From IMG/VR virus record IMGVR_UViG_2695420602_000004: a stretch of DNA of 8,034 nt; one strand, written 5' to 3'. A program made the position numbers and the translations under genes. The DNA is from a virus (Duplodnaviria > Heunggongvirae > Uroviricota > Caudoviricetes). This document shows positions 1 to 8,034 of the stretch, one piece after another (the first letter of the stretch is position 1; each line of letters starts with the position of its first letter). The notes beneath the pieces are model-generated. The model saw only the letters and a list, made by a program, of their open reading frames with translations. It was not told the DNA's origin and made no database searches.

Positions 1-378
1 ATGGACGAACAGTGGGGCTATGTCGGGGCTAAATCGCGCCAGCGCTGGCTGTTTTACGCGTATGACAGTCTCCGGAAGACGGTTGTTGCGCACGTATTCG
101 GTGAACGCACTATGGCGACGCTGGGGCGTCTTATGAGCCTGCTGTCACCCTTTGACGTGGTGATATGGATGACGGATGGCTGGCCGCTGTATGAATCCCG
201 CCTGAAGGGAAAGCTGCACGTAATCAGCAAGCGATATACGCAGCGAATTGAGCGGCATAACCTGAATCTGAGGCAGCACCTGGCACGGCTGGGACGGAAG
301 TCGCTGTCGTTCTCAAAATCGGTGGAGCTGCATGACAAAGTCATCGGGCATTATCTGAACATAAAACACTATCAATAA
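1..378 (+). CDS. insB: IS1 transposase InsB, C-terminal fragment (5' end outside window)
   Basis: Frame open from position 1 to TAA at 376..378; 125-aa translation recognised as InsB C-terminal region. Confidence 0.85.
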
Positions 379-393
379 GTTGGAGTCATTACC
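1..393 (+). mobile_element. IS1 insertion sequence, 3' portion (window starts inside the element); right terminal inverted repeat ends ~393
   Basis: Translation of 1..378 ends ...[15 protein letters not shown], which I recognise as the InsB C-terminus; DNA 371..393 ATCAATAAGTTGGAGTCATTACC matches the remembered IS1 right end (imperfect inverse of the left end GGTGATGCTGCCAACTTACTGAT). Only one end is present, so target-site duplication cannot be checked. Confidence 0.88.
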
Positions 394-483
394 TGCCGGA
401 TGCTCACCCGTGTCCGGCGCACGCACTCCACCTCACCCGTGGAGAACTCCTTAATTACTAACCTTAGCTTTGTTGATTAGCTA

Positions 484-861: not shown

Positions 862-1017
862 TCACTCACCTGGGTTTCTTTCCAGCCAGCGACGGGCACC
901 ATTTTCGGTTTTAAACGTTTTGCTTTTGGTATACGTCATCGCGGTGAACGTACCGTCCTGGTTGGGGAACACGCCACATACCAGAGATTCGCTGTTGCCA
1001 AGATCGATAGTATCCAT
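862..1017 (-). CDS. ydfA: YdfA-like small protein (51 aa, MDTIDLGNSESLVCG...)
   Basis: Internal ATG (1017..1015) of ORF 862..1173 has a GAGG SD 5 nt upstream; 51 aa equals remembered YdfA/YdaF size; first gene downstream of the DicA-like repressor on the same strand, as in Qin. Confidence 0.6.
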   Translation of the reverse strand: MDTIDLGNSESLVCGVFPNQDGTFTAMTYTKSKTFKTENGARRWLERNPGE

Positions 1018-1093
1018 GCTGACCTCATTTCCCCTTAACGCCGGGGTAGCGGAACTGTTTGCTGAGAACACCGTGCGGTGTCTTGATGGAGGT

Positions 1094-1146
1094 AATTTAG
1101 TTTTCTCATTATTTTTCGTCAAGGCTTTTTGATGAGAAAACTCAAG
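1094..1146 (-). promoter_or_regulatory. Candidate leftward promoter of the ydfA-B-C operon with overlapping operator (inverted repeat AGTTTTCTCAT / ATGAGAAAACT)
   Basis: Minus-strand TTGACG (plus 1117..1122), 17-nt spacer, TAAATT (plus 1094..1099); 11-bp inverted repeat arms at 1099..1109 and 1131..1141 flank the -35; the arm GAGAAAACTCAA recurs in the dicA/dicC intergenic region. Confidence 0.4.
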
Positions 1147-1209
1147 TATTGGCGCAAGATAAAGCCAATACATTGAAATGTAAGGCTTTAAAATTTTGTG
1201 AAGGGATGA

Positions 1210-1617
1210 TTATTGATGCTTGTTGCGTTTGCGAGCCTCTAATAGCTCGGTGAACAGGCGATTAAAATTCTCAACGCGGGCGCGGAGTTCGCTGAGTTGT
1301 GCTTGTTGCTCTGATTTAGGAAGTGCGCGATACAAACGCAACATCTCTAACTCATCTTCCGATAAGTCTAAGGCACTATCGAGTGAAACAGGGGGAGTTG
1401 GTGTTTTGTCCTCGTCGCCAAACAGTATCCAGGTTGGTGAACATTGCAATACCTCGGCGAGGCGATGCAAATTTTGCCCGCGCGGGGCTGTATGGTCACT
1501 TTCCCATAATGAAATTGATGAGCCAGATACGCCAGCAGCTTTGCTTAAACCGTTTTGACTTAAGCCTACCTGCTTACGTCTTTCTCTAATGCGTTGACCT
1601 AAAGTTTTCTCGTTCAT
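1210..1617 (-). CDS. dicA: DicA/RacR-like cI-type repressor (HTH_XRE), 135 aa from ATG at 1617; in-frame ATG at 1668 would give 152 aa
   Basis: Translation contains HTH region (GLSQNGLSKAAGVSGSSISLWE) and C-terminal ...LQCSPTWILFGDEDKTPTPP...SEQQAQLSELRARVENFNRLF closely resembling remembered DicA; 135 aa from the MNEKTLGQRIRERRK start equals DicA length. Neither candidate start has a strong SD. Confidence 0.8.
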   Translation of the reverse strand: MNEKTLGQRIRERRKQVGLSQNGLSKAAGVSGSSISLWESDHTAPRGQNLHRLAEVLQCSPTWILFGDEDKTPTPPVSLDSALDLSEDELEMLRLYRALPKSEQQAQLSELRARVENFNRLFTELLEARKRNKHQ

Positions 1618-1694
1618 ATTTAGATATCTTAATAACCCTTGACTTGAGATTCCTTGAGTGATTAGCATTGAGAAAACTCAATATTGGGGGTGCG
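1618..1694. promoter_or_regulatory. Divergent immunity-region promoter/operator between dicA-like and dicC-like genes
   Basis: TTGACT (1639..1644) with TAGCAT-like -10 (~1663..1668) for the rightward gene; TTGAG repeated at 1644, 1654 and 1668, with inverted CTCAA at 1677..1681 (TTGAGAAAACTCAA, 1668..1681) overlapping the -10/start region. Confidence 0.45.
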
Positions 1695-1922
1695 ATGTTT
1701 AAATCAGACGTAATTAATTTTTACGGTACGAAAGCCAAAGTAGCGAAAGCTGCTGGCGTTGACCCATCTGCTGTTTCTCAATGGCAAGAGCTGGTTCCTG
1801 AAGGTCGCGCGATGCGTCTACAGGAGGCATCTGGCGGCGAGCTTCTGTATGATCCCAAGGTTTATGACGAATATCGTAAGACGAAGCGGGCGGGGCGGTT
1901 GAACAATGAAAATCACTCCTGA
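1695..1922 (+). CDS. dicC: DicC/Cro-like small DNA-binding protein (75 aa)
   Basis: ATG at 1695 preceded by GGGGG SD-like run (1686..1690); divergent from the repressor; C-terminal ...PEGRAMRLQEASGGEL.YDPKVY.EYRKTKRAGRLNNENHS resembles remembered DicC; size ~76 aa. The track's 1668 start is TTG and less likely. Confidence 0.7.
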   Translation: MFKSDVINFYGTKAKVAKAAGVDPSAVSQWQELVPEGRAMRLQEASGGELLYDPKVYDEYRKTKRAGRLNNENHS

Positions 1923-2427
1923 ACAGGCTCGTGAGGCTCTGGATGCCTGGATATGTCGACCAGGAATGACACAGGAGCAGGCGACGATATTAATCACTGA
2001 AGCATTTTGGTCTTTGAAAGAGCGCCCGAACATCGATGTTCAGCGTGTCACAGATGAAGGTGGCGCGGTTGATCAGCGAGCGCTTGGCGTTAATCGAGTG
2101 AAGATATTCGAACGCTGGAAGGCTATTGACACCAGGGATAAGCGTGAAAAGTTCACGGCGCTAGTGCCTGCAATTATGGAGGCTATCCGGATTAGTGATT
2201 TCAGGTTGTATCGTGAAATTAGTGACGGGAAAAGCATTACGTACATGATCGCCGGGTTAAACAAAGAATATGGCGATGTGGTGGAGTCCGGACTGCTTTT
2301 TGCTGATCCTGCCGTAGTGGATCGTGAAACTGACGAACTTATAGAAAAAGCAATTGCTTTCAAACTTGCGTATCGACAGCAATACCAACAAAAAGCTGGA
2401 TGGAATTATGAGCCTTCTTTTTGCTGA
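1906..2427 (+). CDS. Hypothetical early protein (173 aa), YdaT-like by position (cII slot) and weak remembered similarity
   Basis: ATG at 1906 overlaps the dicC-like stop by 17 nt (coupled); follows the cro-like gene as ydaT follows ydaS in Rac. Family call is low-confidence. Confidence 0.6.
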   Translation: MKITPEQAREALDAWICRPGMTQEQATILITEAFWSLKERPNIDVQRVTDEGGAVDQRALGVNRVKIFERWKAIDTRDKREKFTALVPAIMEAIRISDFRLYREISDGKSITYMIAGLNKEYGDVVESGLLFADPAVVDRETDELIEKAIAFKLAYRQQYQQKAGWNYEPSFC

Positions 2428-3373
2428 ACGCCCACTGGTTATAAACACACAGCTTGCGATGAAGATTGGCTTAAACGAAGCCATTGTGTTGCAGCAGTTG
2501 CATTACTGGTTGAGAGATACCAATTCCGGCATGGAATGTGATGGTGTTCGCTGGATTTACAACACAACGGAACAATGGCTGGAACAGTTCCCGTTCTGGT
2601 CAGAGTCAACGTTAAAGCGCGCGTTTGCAAGTCTGAAAACGCTGGGGCTTTTACGTTGCGAAAAGCTCAATAAATCAAAGCGCGACATGACCAATTTCTA
2701 CACGATCAACTACGGGAGCGAGCTTTTAGATGGTGGCAAATTGAGCGAATCCATCAGTTCAAAATGCGCCGCTCCATCAGGTCAAAATGACACGATGGAA
2801 GAGGTCAAAATGAAACGCTCCATTGGTTCAAAACGACCCAATGTCATCGGGTCAAAATGGCCTGATGATCTTACAGAGAATACAACAGAGATTACTACAG
2901 AGAATAAAAACACTTTTCGTCCGGAAGCTTCGCAACCGGACCCGCAGACGGCTGAACAGGATTTTTTAACCCGGAACCCCGACGCGGTTGTGTTTAGTGC
3001 GAAAAAACGCCAGTGGGGTAGCAGGGAGGATTTGGCGTGTGCGCAGTGGATTTGGGGGCGGATCGTGAACCTTTACGAACAGGCTGCCAGCGACGATGGA
3101 GAGATCATGCGACCAAAAGAGCCTAACTGGACAGCCTGGGCCAATGACGTGCGCACAATGCGGATGCTGGATGGCAGAAGCCACAGACAAATTTGCGAAA
3201 TGTTTGGTCGGGTACAGCGAGATCAATTCTGGGTAAAAAACATCATGAGCCCGTCAAAACTCCGCAAAAAATGGGACGAACTGGTCATCCGCCTGGGACG
3301 TTCACCTGTACAGCGTTGTGTGAATCATATTTCTGAACCGGATACAGAAATTCCGCCTGGTTTCAGGGGATAA
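2408..3373 (+). CDS. Phage replication initiator (O-like; N-terminal HTH, low-complexity linker encoding ori, C-terminal DnaT-like region); start at ATG 2408 preferred over TTG 2354
   Basis: N-terminus MSLLFAERPLVINTQLAMKIGLNEAIVLQQLHYWL typical of lambdoid 'replication protein' HTH domains; iterons lie inside the central linker, as lambda ori lies inside O; ATG 2408 overlaps the upstream stop by 20 nt. Confidence 0.72.
   Translation: MSLLFAERPLVINTQLAMKIGLNEAIVLQQLHYWLRDTNSGMECDGVRWIYNTTEQWLEQFPFWSESTLKRAFASLKTLGLLRCEKLNKSKRDMTNFYTINYGSELLDGGKLSESISSKCAAPSGQNDTMEEVKMKRSIGSKRPNVIGSKWPDDLTENTTEITTENKNTFRPEASQPDPQTAEQDFLTRNPDAVVFSAKKRQWGSREDLACAQWIWGRIVNLYEQAASDDGEIMRPKEPNWTAWANDVRTMRMLDGRSHRQICEMFGRVQRDQFWVKNIMSPSKLRKKWDELVIRLGRSPVQRCVNHISEPDTEIPPGFRG
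2751..2910 (+). repeat. Candidate origin of replication: five direct G(G/T)TCAAAA(T/C)G iterons at 23-24 bp spacing, then an AT-rich segment with TACAGAGAATA x2
   Basis: Iteron cores at 2757..2766, 2780..2789, 2803..2812, 2826..2835, 2850..2859 (the first two extended as CCATCAG-GTCAAAATG); TACAGAGAATA at 2872..2882 and 2896..2906; all embedded in the initiator's low-complexity linker. Confidence 0.55.
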
Positions 3374-3413
3374 GTGTTGATTTTAGGGCATAAAGTAATG
3401 TTCAGGAGGACTT

Positions 3414-3815
3414 GTGGCAAAAGTTTTTACACAAGAAGAGCGGGAAAAAATTAAAGGGCAGGTGGTGGAACTCGTACGCCAGAGTGGGCGCGAGACATTA
3501 CGACAACTGGAAGCTAAAACTGGGGCAACAAGATATCTGATGAGCGTTCTGGCCAGAGAGCTGGTTGCCAGTGGCGATGTATACAGCTCTGGTTACGGGT
3601 TATTCCCGTCTGAACAGGCGCGTAAGGACTGGCAAAACGCCCGCAAAAAACTCTCGAGGGCAAAGGTGAAGAAAACAGCTGTGATTGATCCGGACCTTAT
3701 CTGGTCGTTACCTGATGGAGAAATACGTCGCTACGACAGTCGCCTAAACATAATCTGTCGCGAGTGCCGGATGAGTGAAGTTATGCAGCGCATACTGGCA
3801 TTTTATCAGGGATAA
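3414..3815 (+). CDS. ren: Ren-like protein (133 aa), GTG start
   Basis: AGGAGG (3404..3409) 4 nt before GTG 3414; C-terminus ...ICRECRMSEVMQRILAFYQG and an internal ...KTGATRYLMSVLARELVASG resemble remembered lambda Ren (...FKECRQSAAMKRVLAVYG; ...LTGATVTSINQAA...); sits right after the replication gene, as ren does in lambda. Confidence 0.55.
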   Translation: MAKVFTQEEREKIKGQVVELVRQSGRETLRQLEAKTGATRYLMSVLARELVASGDVYSSGYGLFPSEQARKDWQNARKKLSRAKVKKTAVIDPDLIWSLPDGEIRRYDSRLNIICRECRMSEVMQRILAFYQG

Positions 3816-3912
3816 TGTTAGGTATTTTAGACGTTACTAGATTAAAAAGCATTAGTTCAGGAGTGAATTGACATTCTCATTTTTCATGGCACAGGGTAGA
3901 TCTGGCGTGGTT

Positions 3913-3936
3913 GTCCGCTTTGTGCCAAAAGCGGAC
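3913..3936 (+). other. Strong stem-loop (9-bp stem GTCCGCTTT / AAAGCGGAC, 6-nt loop) in the ren-cargo intergenic region, no T-tract
   Basis: Direct reading of 3913..3936; not followed by a U-run on either strand, so not a canonical intrinsic terminator. Confidence 0.4.
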
Positions 3937-4004
3937 GCCTACGCCCTAACTAAGCTATTGTGTAATATACGGTACACAATAGCGAAAATTCTAAGCTTGG
4001 GAAT

Positions 4005-4937
4005 ATGGAAATCAACAAAGAAAAATTGTCAGGTTTACTTAACTACTTCGAGTCTCGCAAGAAATACGCTGCAACTCGAATATCTAGTTTATCCAGTCAG
4101 AATGAGATCTGTTTCGCTTTGTCAGGATTGACGTTTCGAAACGGGCCTTATGTTTTCCAAGACGTAGGTGAATTAAGGGAGGTACTTCATCCACCAGGAG
4201 AGATAGAGTTAGCCAAAGCGCTTAAGAGCAAGTCGCTACTCAGCGCTGTTGCTCGTCATATGCCCGCAGTTACGCATGAGCTTGCGTTGCAAAGCAGTGA
4301 GTCGAAATTTTCTCAATCAGACCTGACTATCGGATGGTGGATCATATCCGCGATCCGATGCCGCACACTCACCGATATACTTGTTCCTGCAGTAGCAAGT
4401 GCATCTTGGGATGTATTCCCTGCTCTTCAAGCCAACTCGTGTGAAGTCCAACTTCTTGAGGACGTGCCGGCAGTTCGGAGAATAAGCCCAAGTGTAGAGA
4501 TATCAGTAGAGTCTCTCGACTGGGTTCAAGAGAATCTCAAGCGTTGGATAGATCTGCTAGAGCAACCAGCATTCCGGCTCGCTATTGATTCTTTAACTAC
4601 TCACAACCAACACGCGAATTTGAGAATGGCTGCTGCTGCTTTATGGGCAGGATTTGAAGCGCTCTTTGGAATCAATTCAGAGCTTCGTTTTCGTCTTGCT
4701 CTTATGGCCGCAGCATATCTTGAGGAGCGAGGGCCTGATCGTTTAGCCACCTATCGTAGGGTTAAGAAGCTGTATGACTACCGTTCGAAGGCAGTGCATG
4801 GGGGAGCTACGTCAGATAACTTTTTAGTTGAGCATATAATTGAGGTACGAGTGCTTTTATCCCGATTAGTGTGTCGCATGACAGAGATCGGAAAAATGCC
4901 CACAACCGACGATTACGAGGAACGGCTTCTAACTTAA
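4005..4937 (+). CDS. 310-aa cargo protein with C-terminal R-x4-H motif (R260-S-K-A-V-H265); candidate HEPN-family RNase / abortive-infection-type defence protein
   Basis: Single long ORF with only a weak SD; 189-bp structured intergenic region upstream and 11-bp-stem hairpin downstream; motif YRSKAVHGG (nt 4782..4799) in what reads as an alpha-helical C-terminal region; the flanking genes are conserved lambdoid genes. Domain call is inference from the motif only. Confidence 0.7.
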   Translation: MEINKEKLSGLLNYFESRKKYAATRISSLSSQNEICFALSGLTFRNGPYVFQDVGELREVLHPPGEIELAKALKSKSLLSAVARHMPAVTHELALQSSESKFSQSDLTIGWWIISAIRCRTLTDILVPAVASASWDVFPALQANSCEVQLLEDVPAVRRISPSVEISVESLDWVQENLKRWIDLLEQPAFRLAIDSLTTHNQHANLRMAAAALWAGFEALFGINSELRFRLALMAAAYLEERGPDRLATYRRVKKLYDYRSKAVHGGATSDNFLVEHIIEVRVLLSRLVCRMTEIGKMPTTDDYEERLLT

Positions 4938-4997
4938 GGCTTTTTCTAAGGTAACTTGGAAAAACGCTTGTTTTATCTATACACAGTAAGCCTAACT

Positions 4998-5029
4998 TCA
5001 GTTAACCCGCAATAATGAGGGTTAACTGA
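4998..5029 (+). other. Perfect 11-bp-arm inverted repeat TCAGTTAACCC-N10-GGGTTAACTGA, 61 bp downstream of the cargo gene
   Basis: Direct reading; no adjacent T-tract on either strand, so either a T-tract-less transcript-end or stability hairpin or a protein-binding palindrome; CAGTTAAC recurs at 5509..5516 in the hok leader. Confidence 0.4.
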
Positions 5030-5318
5030 TCAACCTCCAAGATTAGGTACAATGAAGTGGTCAACAAAAACTGGCCACCGCAAGAAAACACGTCTATGTC
5101 AGTATTTATTCCGAACTTCCGTTGTTCGCTCAAAGCGGACTAAAAGGTTAGCTTGTGTCGGACTTTGCGTATTAAAAGAAGTGCAGGTGGTGACTAGTGG
5201 TTGAGCCCCATTTCCACAGAAAAAATCAGAGAAACTATACCCAATAGTTGTATTGAATCACTGACGAGACAGCCTCATATTCATCAGGACTGGTGTACGT
5301 CCAATACAGGAGGTTGTG

Positions 5319-5408
5319 GTGCTGGTTCTCAAATGTGCGCTGGCTATTACGGCTGTAATGGCGATTTATTGTCTTGCTATTGTTCTTATGGATCGCCTTT
5401 CTGACTGA
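5319..5408 (+). CDS. Candidate 29-aa hydrophobic membrane peptide (MLVLKCALAITAVMAIYCLAIVLMDRLSD), GTG start
   Basis: AGGAGG (5308..5313) 5 nt upstream of GTG 5319; product is one predicted transmembrane helix with a charged tail, the profile of small type I toxins; not in the supplied ORF track. Could be chance. Confidence 0.3.
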   Translation: MLVLKCALAITAVMAIYCLAIVLMDRLSD

Positions 5409-5416
5409 TTTCATAT

Positions 5417-5444
5417 TGGCGAGGTAACGGTAGTTAAGTAGAAT
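5417..5444 (+). promoter_or_regulatory. Candidate hok mRNA promoter (TTGGCG-16-TAGAAT)
   Basis: -35-like 5417..5422 and -10-like 5439..5444 place a start near 5451, the 5' end of the segment complementary to the 3' end of the hok transcript (5825..5837). Confidence 0.3.
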
Positions 5445-5619
5445 GGCTGCGGGTGCTTGAGGCTATCTGCCTCGGGCATGAACACCAACGGCAGATAGAG
5501 AAAAGCCCCAGTTAACATTACGCGTCCTGCAAGACGCTTAACATTAATCTGAGGCCAATTTCATGCTAGACACATGTAGGTTAGCCTCTTACGTGCCGAA
5601 AGGCAAGGAGAAGCAGGCT

Positions 5620-5775
5620 ATGAAGCAGCAAAAGGCGATGTTAATCGCCCTGATCGTCATCTGTTTAACCGTCATAGTGACGGCACTGGTAACGAGGAAA
5701 GACCTCTGCGAGGTACGAATCCGAACCGGCCAGACGGAGGTCGCTGTCTTCACAGCTTACGAACCTGAGGAGTAA
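5620..5775 (+). CDS. hokD: Hok-family type I toxin (51 aa, MKQQKAMLIALIVICLTVIVTALVTRKDLCEVRIRTGQTEVAVFTAYEPEE), HokD/RelF-like
   Basis: Sequence recognised as Hok family (TM helix plus conserved LCE.R....EVA.F.AYE); an in-frame upstream ATG at 5563 gives a 70-codon extended ORF; SD-like AAGGAG at 5604..5609. Confidence 0.85.
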   Translation: MKQQKAMLIALIVICLTVIVTALVTRKDLCEVRIRTGQTEVAVFTAYEPEE

Positions 5776-5845
5776 GAGACCCGGCGAGGGAGAAATCCCT
5801 CGCCACCTCTGATGTGGCAGGCATCCTCAACGCACCCGCACTTAA

Positions 5846-5870
5846 CCCGCTTCGGCGGGTTTTTGTTTTT
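5846..5870 (+). terminator. Rho-independent terminator at the 3' end of the hok transcript (CCCGC-TTCG-GCGGG + T-run)
   Basis: GC-rich 5-bp stem with tetraloop at 5846..5859, followed by TTTTTGTTTTT at 5860..5870. Confidence 0.65.
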
Positions 5871-5883
5871 ATTTTCAACGCGT

Positions 5884-5913
5884 TTGAAGTTCTGGACGGT
5901 GCCGGAATAGAAT
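5884..5913 (+). promoter_or_regulatory. Candidate promoter for rem-like gene (TTGAAG-18-TAGAAT)
   Basis: Hexamers at 5884..5889 and 5908..5913 downstream of the hok terminator; weak, sequence-only. Confidence 0.25.
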
Positions 5914-5991
5914 CAAAAATACTTAAGTAGCGCGCAGGGATAAGAGGGATGGTCCCTTAAAGGGGAGAGCTAATTATCCGGAAGGATTCTG

Positions 5992-6243
5992 ATGATGAAC
6001 ATCGAAGAACTGCGTAAAATTTTTTGTGAAGATGGCCTCTATGCTGTGTGCGTTGAAAATGGAAATCTTGTTAGTCATTACCGCATTATGTGTTTGCGAA
6101 AGAATGGGGCTGCGTTAATTAATTTTGTGGATGGTCGAGTGACAGACGGATTTATCTTGCGCGAAGGTGAGTTTGTCACTTCATTACAGGCACTGAAAGA
6201 GATCGGAATAAAAGCAGGCTTTTCAGCTTTTGCAGAAGAATAA
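5992..6243 (+). CDS. rem: Rem-like small prophage protein (83 aa)
   Basis: GAAGGA SD (5981..5986) 5 nt before ATG 5992; 83 aa and position immediately next to hok match remembered Qin rem. Confidence 0.65.
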   Translation: MMNIEELRKIFCEDGLYAVCVENGNLVSHYRIMCLRKNGAALINFVDGRVTDGFILREGEFVTSLQALKEIGIKAGFSAFAEE

Positions 6244-6309
6244 ACTCATCTACAATCTTGCGCGGGGCTGAACTCCCGCTGAGTAACACCGTGCCACCGG
6301 AGAAAACCG

Positions 6310-6588
6310 ATGGCACGCAACGTAAAATATTACAATTCTGATAATTCGCCCGTTCTTGCCTGCACGCACGAGCGGTATTCTCACGCATTCAAGTCTGAAT
6401 GGTTCCAACACCCTCCATGCACTGAAGAGCAGGCTGAATGGATAATTCAGTGTTACCGCAGGCGCGGATACGAGGTTAAGAAAGCCCTTAGTCTCGACTA
6501 CCGTCACTGGATAATCTCAGTCAGATTGCCTTACTCCGAACGCCCACCGCGTCCGTCCCGTACATTCCAGCAACGCATCTGGAGGTAA
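6310..6588 (+). CDS. Hypothetical protein (92 aa), translationally coupled to downstream DUF968 gene
   Basis: GGAG (6299..6302) 7 nt before ATG 6310; stop TAA 6586..6588 lies inside the downstream gene's RBS (GGAGG 6581..6585). Confidence 0.6.
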   Translation: MARNVKYYNSDNSPVLACTHERYSHAFKSEWFQHPPCTEEQAEWIIQCYRRRGYEVKKALSLDYRHWIISVRLPYSERPPRPSRTFQQRIWR

Positions 6589-6589
6589 C

Positions 6590-7639
6590 GTGCGGGTATT
6601 ACTTCGACCTGTTCTGGTACCGGAACTCGGGCTGGTGGTCGTTAAGCCGGGCCGTGAATCCATGCCGGTATTCCACAATACCCGGGTACTGGTGGAGCCG
6701 GAACCGAAAAGCATGCGTAATCTGCCGTCCGGGGTCGTTCCTGCCGTTCGCCAGCCGCTGGTGGAAGACAAAACATTGCTGCCGTTTTTCAGTAACGCAC
6801 GGGTAATTCGTGCTGCTGGTGGTGCTGGTGCATTGTCTGACTGGCTGTTGCGCCATATTAAATCCTGCCAGTGGCCACACGGCGATTATCATCACAGCGA
6901 AACCGTTATTCACCGATATGGTACCGGCGCAATGGTGTTGTGCTGGCACTGCGACAACCAGCTGCGTGACCAGACATCCGAATCACTCGAGCAACTTGCT
7001 CATCAAAACCTGTCAGCATGGATGATTGACGTCATCGGTCACGCAATAAGCGGTACGCAGGAGCGTGAATTATCTCTGGCTGAATTATCCTGGTGGGCGC
7101 TCCGCAATCAGCTGGCGGACGCGCTACCGGAAGCGGTATTACGTCGCTCGCTGGGATTACCAGCGGAAAAAATCTGCTCGGTGTACCGCGAAAGCGACAT
7201 CGTACCGGGAGAGCAGACCGCCACCAGCATATTGAAACAGCGCACAAAAAATCTTGCACCGTTGCCTCACGCCCACCAGCAACAAAACCCATCACAGGAA
7301 AAGACGGTGGTAAGCATCACCGTTGATCCAGAGTCTCCGGAATCTTTCATGAAGCTGCCTAAACGTCACCGTTGGGTTAAGGAGAAATACACACGCTGGG
7401 TTAAGACACAGCCGTGTGCTTGCTGCGGGATGCCAGCCGACGATCCGCATCATCTGATTGGTCACGGGCAGGGCGGAATGGGAACCAAAGCACATGATCT
7501 CTTTGTGTTGCCTTTGTGCAGAAAGCATCACGACGAGTTGCATACGGATACCGTGGCATTTGAAGAGAAGTATGGCTCCCAACTGGAGCTGATTTTTCGA
7601 TTTATCGATCGCGCGCTGGCAATTGGTGTGCTGGCCTAA
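6590..7639 (+). CDS. ydfU: DUF968-type prophage protein with C-terminal HNH-like Cys/His cluster (349 aa), YdfU-like; GTG start
   Basis: GGAGG 4 nt before GTG 6590; C-terminus [43 protein letters not shown] has CxxC...HH...C..HH..H spacing typical of HNH-type zinc-finger nucleases; size and position before Q match remembered Qin YdfU. Confidence 0.72.
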
Positions 7640-7656
7640 TTTTGTGGAGTAAGTTG

Positions 7657-8034
7657 ATGCGTGATATTCAGATGGTTCTTGAGCGTTGGGGGGCATGGGC
7701 GGCTAATAATCATGAAGATGTGACCTGGTCGTCCATTGCCGCTGGTTTTAAGGGATTAATTCCTTCAAAAGTAAGATCTCGTCCGCAATGCTGTGACGAT
7801 GACGCGATGATCATTTGTGAATGTATGGCTCGCCTGAGAAAAAACAACAGCGATTTACATGATTTATTGGTGGACTATTATGTTGGCGGCATGACTTTTA
7901 TGGCGCTTGCACGTAAGCATGGGCGATCTGATTGTTGGGTTGGCAGGATGCTCCAGAAAGCTGAGGGCGTAGTGGAGGGCATGCTGATGGTATTGGATCT
8001 CCGATTGGAGATGGATGCTGATTGTTCGAAATAA
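7657..8034 (+). CDS. Late-gene antiterminator Q (QuuD-like, 125 aa); stop codon is the last three bases of the window
   Basis: GGAG (7646..7649) 7 nt before ATG 7657; translation [34 protein letters not shown]...CCDDDAMII...[10 protein letters not shown] closely resembles remembered DLP12 QuuD. Confidence 0.8.

Follow-up and report, generated by a model that had tools for sequence, protein, structure and literature searches.

Candidate operators of a Qin-like but heteroimmune DicA/DicC switch (mEp460 type) in a lambdoid prophage segment

A short palindromic motif is repeated on both sides of the dicA-like repressor gene in the stretch of DNA analyzed here (8034 nt in total, hereafter the window), and we consider it very probable (roughly 85%) that its copies represent the operators of a DicA/DicC switch like that of prophage Qin, but heteroimmune and of the mEp460 type, a reading that rests on sequence comparison. 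The copies occupy defined positions relative to promoter-like hexamers, they are conserved, and they are inherited together with the repressor and Cro helix-turn-helix regions. The initial annotation had interpreted the arrangement as OL/OR-like. The comparative evidence supports this, i.e., the overlap with promoters, the conservation in Buttiauxella and the positional equivalence with the K-12 operator Oc, since the motif occurs at the same three places in Buttiauxella and Oc is found at those places in the K-12-type locus.

Gene content and the immunity cassette

The open reading frame listing and family searches identify the stretch as a segment of a Qin/mEp460-like lambdoid prophage (Table 1). 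Its DicA-like repressor scored 239.8 bits against the NCBIfam DicA subfamily model (cut-off 101) and is, over its full length, 58% identical to the K-12-type DicA. The only Pfam matches of this protein are to HTH_3 and related helix-turn-helix families, and the Pfam search revealed no S24 domain for RecA-stimulated autocleavage in its 135 amino acids. It combines an N-terminal helix-turn-helix domain of the P22 c2 type with a C-terminal half of the DicA type, and the closest solved homologue of its residues 1-72 is the DNA-binding domain of P22 c2 (1adr, 2r1j; E 8e-16 to 4e-15). The DicC-like protein scored 165.3 bits against NCBIfam DicC (cut-off 130), also exceeds the cut-off of Pfam P22_Cro, and is 68% identical to the K-12-type DicC. 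The locus, therefore, holds a CI-type helix-turn-helix repressor gene and a divergent Cro-type gene, as expected for lambdoid immunity, and with a full-length DicA-family repressor and a DicC-family partner it has the composition of a Qin-type switch. The gene identities on which the initial annotation relied were thus correct, as both subfamily cut-offs are passed and ydfA, ydfB, and ydfC (97-100% identical to those of the K-12 type) lie downstream of the repressor gene; in the window IS1 follows after ydfC. No Rfam match for DicF was obtained in the window, and dicF and dicB are not in view; dicB is present in L002, the closest complete relative.

Table 1. Features of the window (8034 nt), with strand and basis of assignment
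Feature	Position	Strand	Basis or remarks
IS1 insB	1-378		ORF listing/family searches
ydfC	484-702	minus	ORF listing/family searches
ydfB	732-902	minus	ORF listing/family searches
ydfA (DUF1391), first gene of the leftward operon	862-1017	minus	ORF listing, family searches, annotation of relative; operon is under predicted control of the left candidate operators
Immunity cassette, block differing from K-12-type Qin	1089-1794	.	Global alignment with K-12-type locus
Promoter-like site of ydfA-ydfB-ydfC (dicBp/PL analogue)	1094-1122	minus	TTGACG, 17 nt, TAAATT
Left proximal candidate operator L1	1095-1110	.	Minus strand reads AATGAGAAAACTAAAT
Left distal candidate operator L2	1131-1146	.	GATGAGAAAACTCAAG
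DicA-like immunity repressor, 135 aa	1210-1617	minus	NCBIfam DicA, Pfam HTH_3
Candidate fourth, weaker operator, K-12 Oa equivalent	1618-1633	.	ATTTAGATATCTTAAT, 2 mismatches
Promoter-like site of dicC/cro-like gene (PR analogue)	1639-1668	plus	TTGACT, 18 nt, TAGCAT
Right candidate operator, K-12 Oc equivalent	1667-1682	.	ATTGAGAAAACTCAAT, perfect 6+4+6 palindrome, 0 mismatches
DicC/Cro-like regulator, 75 aa	1695-1922	plus	NCBIfam DicC, Pfam P22_Cro
ydaT-like gene	1906-2427		ORF listing/family searches
sok (sok/hokD locus)	5451-5625		Rfam match
rem, candidate antirepressor gene	5992-6243	plus	100% identical to L002 protein annotated Rem

In a global alignment with the K-12-type locus, a block of 706 bp, which we call the immunity cassette, is 23-87% identical per 30-nt bin (mostly 30-65%), whereas the sequence outside it is 97-100% identical. 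The edges of the cassette are sharp, as this high level of identity extends up to position 1088 and resumes from position 1795. The left edge approximately coincides with the predicted +1 of the leftward promoter, and the right edge (boundary 1794/1795) falls inside dicC, just past the helix-turn-helix; the N-terminal, helix-turn-helix half of the DicC-like protein is encoded in the cassette and its C-terminal half is common to the K-12 type. The cassette holds both promoter-like sites, all candidate operators, the repressor gene, and the helix-turn-helix of DicC. These contents, together with the sharp bounds, indicate that promoters, operators, repressor, and the DNA-binding half of Cro are inherited as one module, and the classical imm substitutions of lambdoid phages represent the same kind of module exchange. 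Since the whole 706-bp cassette is replaced, the two cassette types are expected to be heteroimmune.

Positions 1090-1700 of the window are 99.0-99.3% identical in phage mEp460_ev081 (LR597641) and phage HannyBb (PP925841), which possess the same repressor, operators, and cro start; these two are complete phage genomes, unlike the window, a prophage copy into which IS1 has inserted. Phage mEp460_ev081 has been described as a functional temperate phage with homologues of dicB, dicF, dicAC, and rem (PMC10448788). No description of the operators of mEp460_ev081 or HannyBb was found in the searchable literature, and a literature search with the motif string returned unrelated eukaryotic papers only. 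At least 80% of the region 850-1950, used as query, is present in about 797 out of 5426 complete E. coli genomes (about 15%).

Candidate operators at two promoter-like sites

All three strings of the GAGAAAACT-type motif quoted in the initial annotation are present where it had placed them. The match of 18 out of 19 positions that it reported between the left and the right copy is obtained only if a gap of 1 nt is allowed (CTCAA-G-TATTGG vs. CTCAA-TATTGG); without a gap, the exact repeat is 13 nt long, i.e., TGAGAAAACTCAA at 1133-1145 and at 1669-1681. A 13-nt word common to the two intergenic regions compared (1018-1209, 192 nt, and 1618-1694, 77 nt), on either strand, appeared in 5 out of 5000 dinucleotide-preserving shuffles. 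We rejected the TATTGG extension as a part of the site, since it varies among the E. coli copies and is missing in Buttiauxella. A third copy, TGAGAAAACTAAA, is inverted and lies on the minus strand at 1096-1108 (match of 12 out of 13). With the arm at 1132-1148 it forms a 17-nt inverted repeat (88%) around TTGACG at 1117-1122, in agreement with the earlier description of a left copy paired with an inverted one around a leftward promoter.

The candidate sites are 16-mers of the form ATTGAG-N4-CTCAAT and are placed where operators should be. The right site spans the last 2 nt of the predicted -10 of dicC to about +8, and the overlap between the motif and the dicC-like promoter noted previously is, therefore, borne out by the promoter-like hexamers. 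On the left, the ydfABC (dicBp-like) leftward promoter has L2 at 9-24 nt upstream of its -35, and L1 overlaps 11 nt of its spacer and 5 out of 6 nt of its -10. Candidate operators are thus found on both sides of the repressor gene, L1 and L2 around TTGACG/TAAATT and the right site on TAGCAT/+1. Both promoters are consensus matches, and the two sigma-70-like hexamer pairs present in 850-1950, just one per side, compare with 1.4 expected in this region. A terminator scan found no terminators in 850-1950, and no Rfam match to an RNA family was obtained in 1000-1760. A hairpin occurs at 1147-1189.

A further P22-like site, beside the start of dicA, was missed in the initial annotation. This fourth candidate (ATTTAGATATCTTAAT at 1618-1633) directly adjoins the ATG of dicA and has the half-site TTAAG and the centre ATAT, as in operators of phage P22.

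Two other sets of motifs were considered and rejected. The phased TTGAG repeats described earlier are present at 1644, 1654, and 1668 (spacing 10 and 14), but in Buttiauxella the first two are replaced by CGCAAG and CTCAGG. Moreover, neither has a partner half-site at the right spacing. A fourth GAGAAAACT, at 1603-1611, lies inside codons 3-5 of dicA, where it encodes N-E-K-T; it scores 6.8 bits with the Buttiauxella weight matrix described below and is missing from the Buttiauxella genes (MNEM...). Since it is not conserved there, its presence is probably due to chance.

Related loci and alternative explanations

Relatives of DicA were sought in one genome per species and were encountered in Buttiauxella ferragutiae (76% identity), B. 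gaviniae (74%), and Citrobacter braakii (66%); the same scan yielded those of K-12-type E. coli and Citrobacter sp. NCU1. The comparative set comprises six loci, which fall in three specificity classes. A scan of viral contigs produced 80 near-identical copies and no new specificity class.

Within the specificity class of the window, the two Buttiauxella species have GAGTTTTCTCA/GAGAAAACTA unaltered at each of the three positions, amid flanking and intervening sequence that has diverged, although part of this conservation could be due to descent since the window and the Buttiauxella copies have a common ancestor. B. ferragutiae has the exact 16-mer ATTGAGTTTTCTCAAT on the upstream as well as the downstream side of the repressor gene, and the 16-mer of the right operator is identical to that of the window. 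ETEC-2265, an E. coli copy that is 91.5% identical, has kept L1, the -35, and L2, with the segments between them rewritten, and shows a single central change (AAAG) in the right operator. The leftward -35 is also conserved in Buttiauxella, and the dicC-like promoter has retained its -35 TTGAC and a TAnnnT -10 in Buttiauxella and C. braakii. Buttiauxella, C. braakii, and ETEC-2265 all have the site at 1618-1633 with 100% identity. In a map of variability within the type, based on 44 distinct near-identical copies from E. coli and viruses, L2 and the right site show no change in their 13-nt cores (for the right site the invariant core is 1668-1682), and variation occurs at the adjacent positions 1146-1152, 1124-1125, 1111, 1683-1688, and 1665-1667.

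A weight matrix was constructed from the six Buttiauxella sites alone and applied to both strands of all 8034 bases (about 16,000 positions). It ranked the right site first (26.7 bits), L1 second (20.9), and L2 third (15.9), with the best score per shuffled window having a median of 9.9 and a 95th percentile of 14.5. The fourth-ranked match, 1618-1633, with 11.8 bits, is within the shuffle range and not significant window-wide. The clear sites, therefore, number two on the left, and the right side has one strong site and this weak one, compared to three per side in lambda.

The K-12-type loci have other operators at the same positions. Their dicA-dicC spacer contains TTGTTAGTCATAACTAACAA, which is the published Oc, and related palindromes bracket the -35 of dicBp. 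In K-12, Oc is located just after the -10 of the dicC promoter (PMC3441716), a layout that is the same as that of the right site of the window. Single-base changes in Oc abolished binding of DicA in vivo, and Om and Oa, additional operators predicted from the sequence, showed no binding of DicA in vivo (PMC3441716). In K-12, DicA acts as a repressor of dicC and dicBp and, from Oc, as an activator of its own, weak promoter (PMC3441716); operators are present at both dicCp and dicBp, and Rem acts as antirepressor (PMC10448788). Oc itself is not found in the window, as Oc 16-mers match 9 out of 16 positions in the left region, which is the background level. In the comparison with the Qin dicA operators, which had been proposed in the initial annotation, the three positions agree but the palindrome is a different one, and Qin of K-12 has another operator sequence.

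A third, intermediate palindrome, TTGTTGAGTTTATTTAACAA, is found at the same places in C. braakii. Of the sites downstream of the repressor gene, one is centred 19-20 nt past the start of the -35 and the other 16-17 nt ahead of it, in all six loci. When compared with the downstream regions, the 16-mer of the right operator of the window matches at 14-16 out of 16 positions in its own class, at 12 in C. braakii, and at 9-10 in the K-12 type, and the K-12-type 16-mers show 13-14 matches in their own class and 8-10 elsewhere. For the two Buttiauxella loci, aligned sites were used instead of the best 8+4+8 palindrome chosen automatically as Oc, which was unsuitable there. In the recognition-helix region of DicA, the window and Buttiauxella classes have V-S-G-S-S-I-S-L, the K-12 class has I-S-H-V-S-V-S-Q, and C. 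braakii has I-S-H-A-T-I-S-L. The DicC helix of the window type, D-R/P-S-A-V-S-Q-W, is present in C. braakii, of which the DicA helix differs. C. braakii thus combines an altered main motif with an altered DicA helix and an unaltered DicC helix, and this ties the motif to DicA.

That the sites would primarily serve the DicC/Cro-like protein or a host factor such as YjdC, instead of the DicA-like repressor, seems unlikely in view of this comparison, in which the main motif follows the DicA helix. In its favour, dicA of K-12 is flanked by the strongest ChIP-seq peaks of DicC, which show a palindromic TTnG...CnAA motif (PMC11430063), the cassette also includes the DicC helix-turn-helix, and the site at 1618-1633 tracks the DicC and not the DicA helix class in C. 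braakii. However, the two assignments are not exclusive, as lambdoid repressor and Cro share operators, and DicA binds to Oc in K-12 in vivo (PMC3441716).

We regard it as very improbable that the left pair represents a nucleic-acid hairpin, either an RNA terminator or processing stem in dicA read-through transcripts or a DNA cruciform. Such a structure would fit with the inverted repeat formed by the two left copies and with the folding energy of -23.2 kcal/mol (z = -3.96) of the RNA read from the minus strand over 1085-1215, and the stem is retained in Buttiauxella. However, any two near-palindromic operator copies pair automatically, no U-run follows after the stem, and there is no informative compensatory change (1 out of 20 pairs, the others being invariant or broken). 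A hairpin would also leave unexplained both the third copy at the dicC promoter and the positional equivalence with the K-12 operators of unrelated sequence. Finally, the notion that the shared word is a functionless product of chance, or a remnant of a local duplication or recombination event, in AT-rich intergenic DNA where a whole-window search allowing three mismatches gave five occurrences against 3.1 expected, is hardly credible given the rarity of the exact 13-mer in the shuffles, the cross-genus conservation amid diverged flanks, the recovery of exactly these sites by the independent Buttiauxella matrix, and their fixed positions relative to the promoters.

Proposed switch and its relation to known systems

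For the variant of the window we infer binding, repression, and autoactivation, and roles for DicC and Rem, along the following lines. The 135-aa repressor would bind as a dimer, via its P22 c2-type helix-turn-helix domain, to pseudo-palindromes of 16-18 bp composed of two TTGAG-type half-sites with four A/T pairs in between, and since the sites have the geometry of P22 c2 this would be predicted to occlude RNA polymerase at both promoters. The strong right site, on the -10/+1 of the dicC/cro-like promoter (PR analogue), would block that promoter and, like Oc in K-12, may also stimulate the promoter of dicA, which is weak and divergent. L1 and L2, which bracket the -35 and cover the spacer and -10, would keep the leftward ydfABC(-dicF-dicB) promoter (PL analogue) off. 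Induction would proceed via the Rem antirepressor and not via RecA cleavage, since the repressor has no S24 domain; K-12 DicA is likewise devoid of an Ala-Gly cleavage site (PMC10448788). The rem gene of the window is a candidate for this antirepressor role, which has been shown only for K-12 Rem and DicA (PMC10448788).

The DicC/Cro-like protein is expected on the same operator set, and the site at 1618-1633, over the start of dicA, would be the likely place for shut-off of dicA. It may not be a site for the repressor, since K-12 Om and Oa are not bound by DicA in vivo (PMC3441716), and since C. braakii has the window-type DicC helix and not the DicA helix, it may be a DicC-preferred site and an analogue of OR3, as far as can be judged from the very few classes compared. 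It is conceivable, although we consider it doubtful, that two partly separate recognition codes exist, with TTGAG-AAAA-CTCAA belonging to the DicA-like helix and the TTAAG-ATAT-CTAAA of 1618-1633 to the DicC/Cro-like helix. If so, 1618-1633 would be a Cro-dedicated operator rather than the weakest member of one shared set, and the specificities of repressor and Cro would be exchangeable independently within the cassette.

In its layout the window resembles the DicA/DicC locus of K-12 Qin, with the same order of ydfCBA, dicBp, dicA, divergent dicC, and a ydaT-like gene, a repressor of 135 aa devoid of a RecA-cleavage domain, a gene for Rem, and three operators, candidate ones in the window, that are placed alike with respect to the promoters. 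The operator sequences are, however, unrelated (ATTGAG-AAAA-CTCAAT in the window vs. TTGTTAGT-CATA-ACTAACAA in K-12), and neither DicA nor DicC has the same recognition helix in the two types.

With immC of P22 the window shares the c2-type N-terminal domain, a Cro belonging to Pfam P22_Cro, and an operator geometry of 5-bp half-sites one helical turn apart with an uncontacted A/T centre of 4 bp. The P22 operator consensus is ATTTAAGATATCTTAAAT, of which the TTAAG half-sites are read by a c2 dimer (PMC5175364); four central base pairs are not contacted by c2, and an A-tract centre was bound best among the centres tested (PMC4267663). Candidate operators of P22 type are represented in the window by TTGAG-AAAA-CTCAA at three sites and TTAAG-ATAT-CTAAA at 1618-1633; the half-site of the former is TTGAG instead of the TTAAG of P22, whereas the latter has TTAAG-ATAT exactly. 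The C-terminal S24 autocleavage domain occurs only in P22 c2, Val33 of c2 is replaced by Ser in the window repressor and Glu44/Asn46 by Ala/Arg, and fewer operators per side are recognizable in the window.

The arrangement of a repressor gene between a co-directional leftward early promoter and a divergent promoter with cro as its first gene, with the same operator family at both promoters, is also that of lambda, an analogy that has been drawn for Qin (PMC10448788). However, lambda has three 17-bp operators per side, a cooperative cI, looping between OL and OR, and RecA-dependent cleavage, none of which is evident in the window.

The logic of the switch is ordinary, in the style of lambda and P22, and the understanding of how such switches work remains unchanged; it is the operator sequence that is apparently undescribed in the searchable literature. 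The products of dicBF-type operons inhibit cell division and alter the susceptibility to phages, and, to our knowledge, the work on DicA regulation has so far concerned only the K-12 operator. With ATTGAG-AAAA-CTCAAT as their own operator, the copies of the window type should not be silenced by K-12 DicA, nor should the reverse occur. The two variants would provide a natural specificity pair for how helix-turn-helix domains of the P22 c2 type read half-site and centre bases, and the window variant would offer ready targets for reporters, or for the prediction of cross-immunity between multiple Qin-like prophages and phages such as mEp460_ev081. The cassette sits before a dicBF-type operon in about 15% of complete E. 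coli genomes.

Boundaries of the immunity cassette

The block in which the window departs from K-12-type Qin, comprising the dicA-like repressor gene and the start of the Cro-like dicC gene, is sharply delimited. Its left mosaic edge (1088/1089) is where the +1 of the leftward promoter ahead of ydfA-ydfB-ydfC is predicted, and its right edge (1794/1795) lies within dicC, directly past the segment encoding the helix-turn-helix, so that the C-terminal half of DicC is common to both immunity types. The features considered here are compiled in the table.

Features within and around the immunity cassette
Feature	Position (nt)	Strand	Remarks
IS1 (insB 1-378)	within 1-483		~100 nt downstream of ydfC
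Overlapping inverted repeats	1147-1189		between dicA stop and operator L2
Repressor residues 44 and 46	about 1480-1488	minus	
Candidate operator-like site ATTTAGATATCTTAAT	1618-1633		adjoins dicA-like start codon
310-aa ORF	4005-4937		relatives' annotation: HEPN domain-containing protein
sok antisense RNA (Rfam, 115 bits) with hokD	5451-5775		followed by rem
rem	5992-6243		downstream of sok/hokD

Regions flanking the cassette

At the left end IS1 lies close to ydfC, and the whole window gave no hit for DicF RNA; this copy therefore appears to have lost the dicF-dicB portion of its operon or to have had it displaced. Of the window, only 904-8034 is spanned by the closest full-length match in E. 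coli. To the right, the protein encoded by rem, a candidate antirepressor, is 100% identical to the annotated Rem of a relative carrying the same immunity cassette. The 310-aa ORF, for which no NCBIfam match was obtained, is located amid replication and late-region genes and may represent a defence or toxin cargo gene.

Inverted repeats

The repeats between the dicA stop and the putative operator L2 consist of TATTGGC...GCCAATA and of AAAGCC...GGCTTT enclosing TACATT..AATGTA. They are fully conserved in E. coli ETEC-2265 and partially in Buttiauxella, and could terminate dicA transcription weakly or be bound by another protein. A further, perfect 14-nt inverted repeat (1529-1542 versus 1746-1759) results from identical codon usage: in the turn of the helix-turn-helix, the dicA-like gene and the dicC-like gene, located on opposite strands, encode K-A-A-G-V with the same codons.

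Operator recognition and the likeness to phage P22

The candidate site beside the dicA-like start has the same half-site and centre, TTAAG-ATAT, as the operators of phage P22. It is kept even in C. braakii, despite the different main operators there, and follows the class of the DicC-like helix-turn-helix and not that of the DicA-like one. In the P22 c2 repressor Glu44 and Asn46 have been tied to the reading of the uncontacted operator centre, whereas the window and Buttiauxella repressors carry Ala and Arg at these positions and those of the K-12 class Glu and Thr. This difference may be linked to the near-invariant AAAA centre of the window-class operators.
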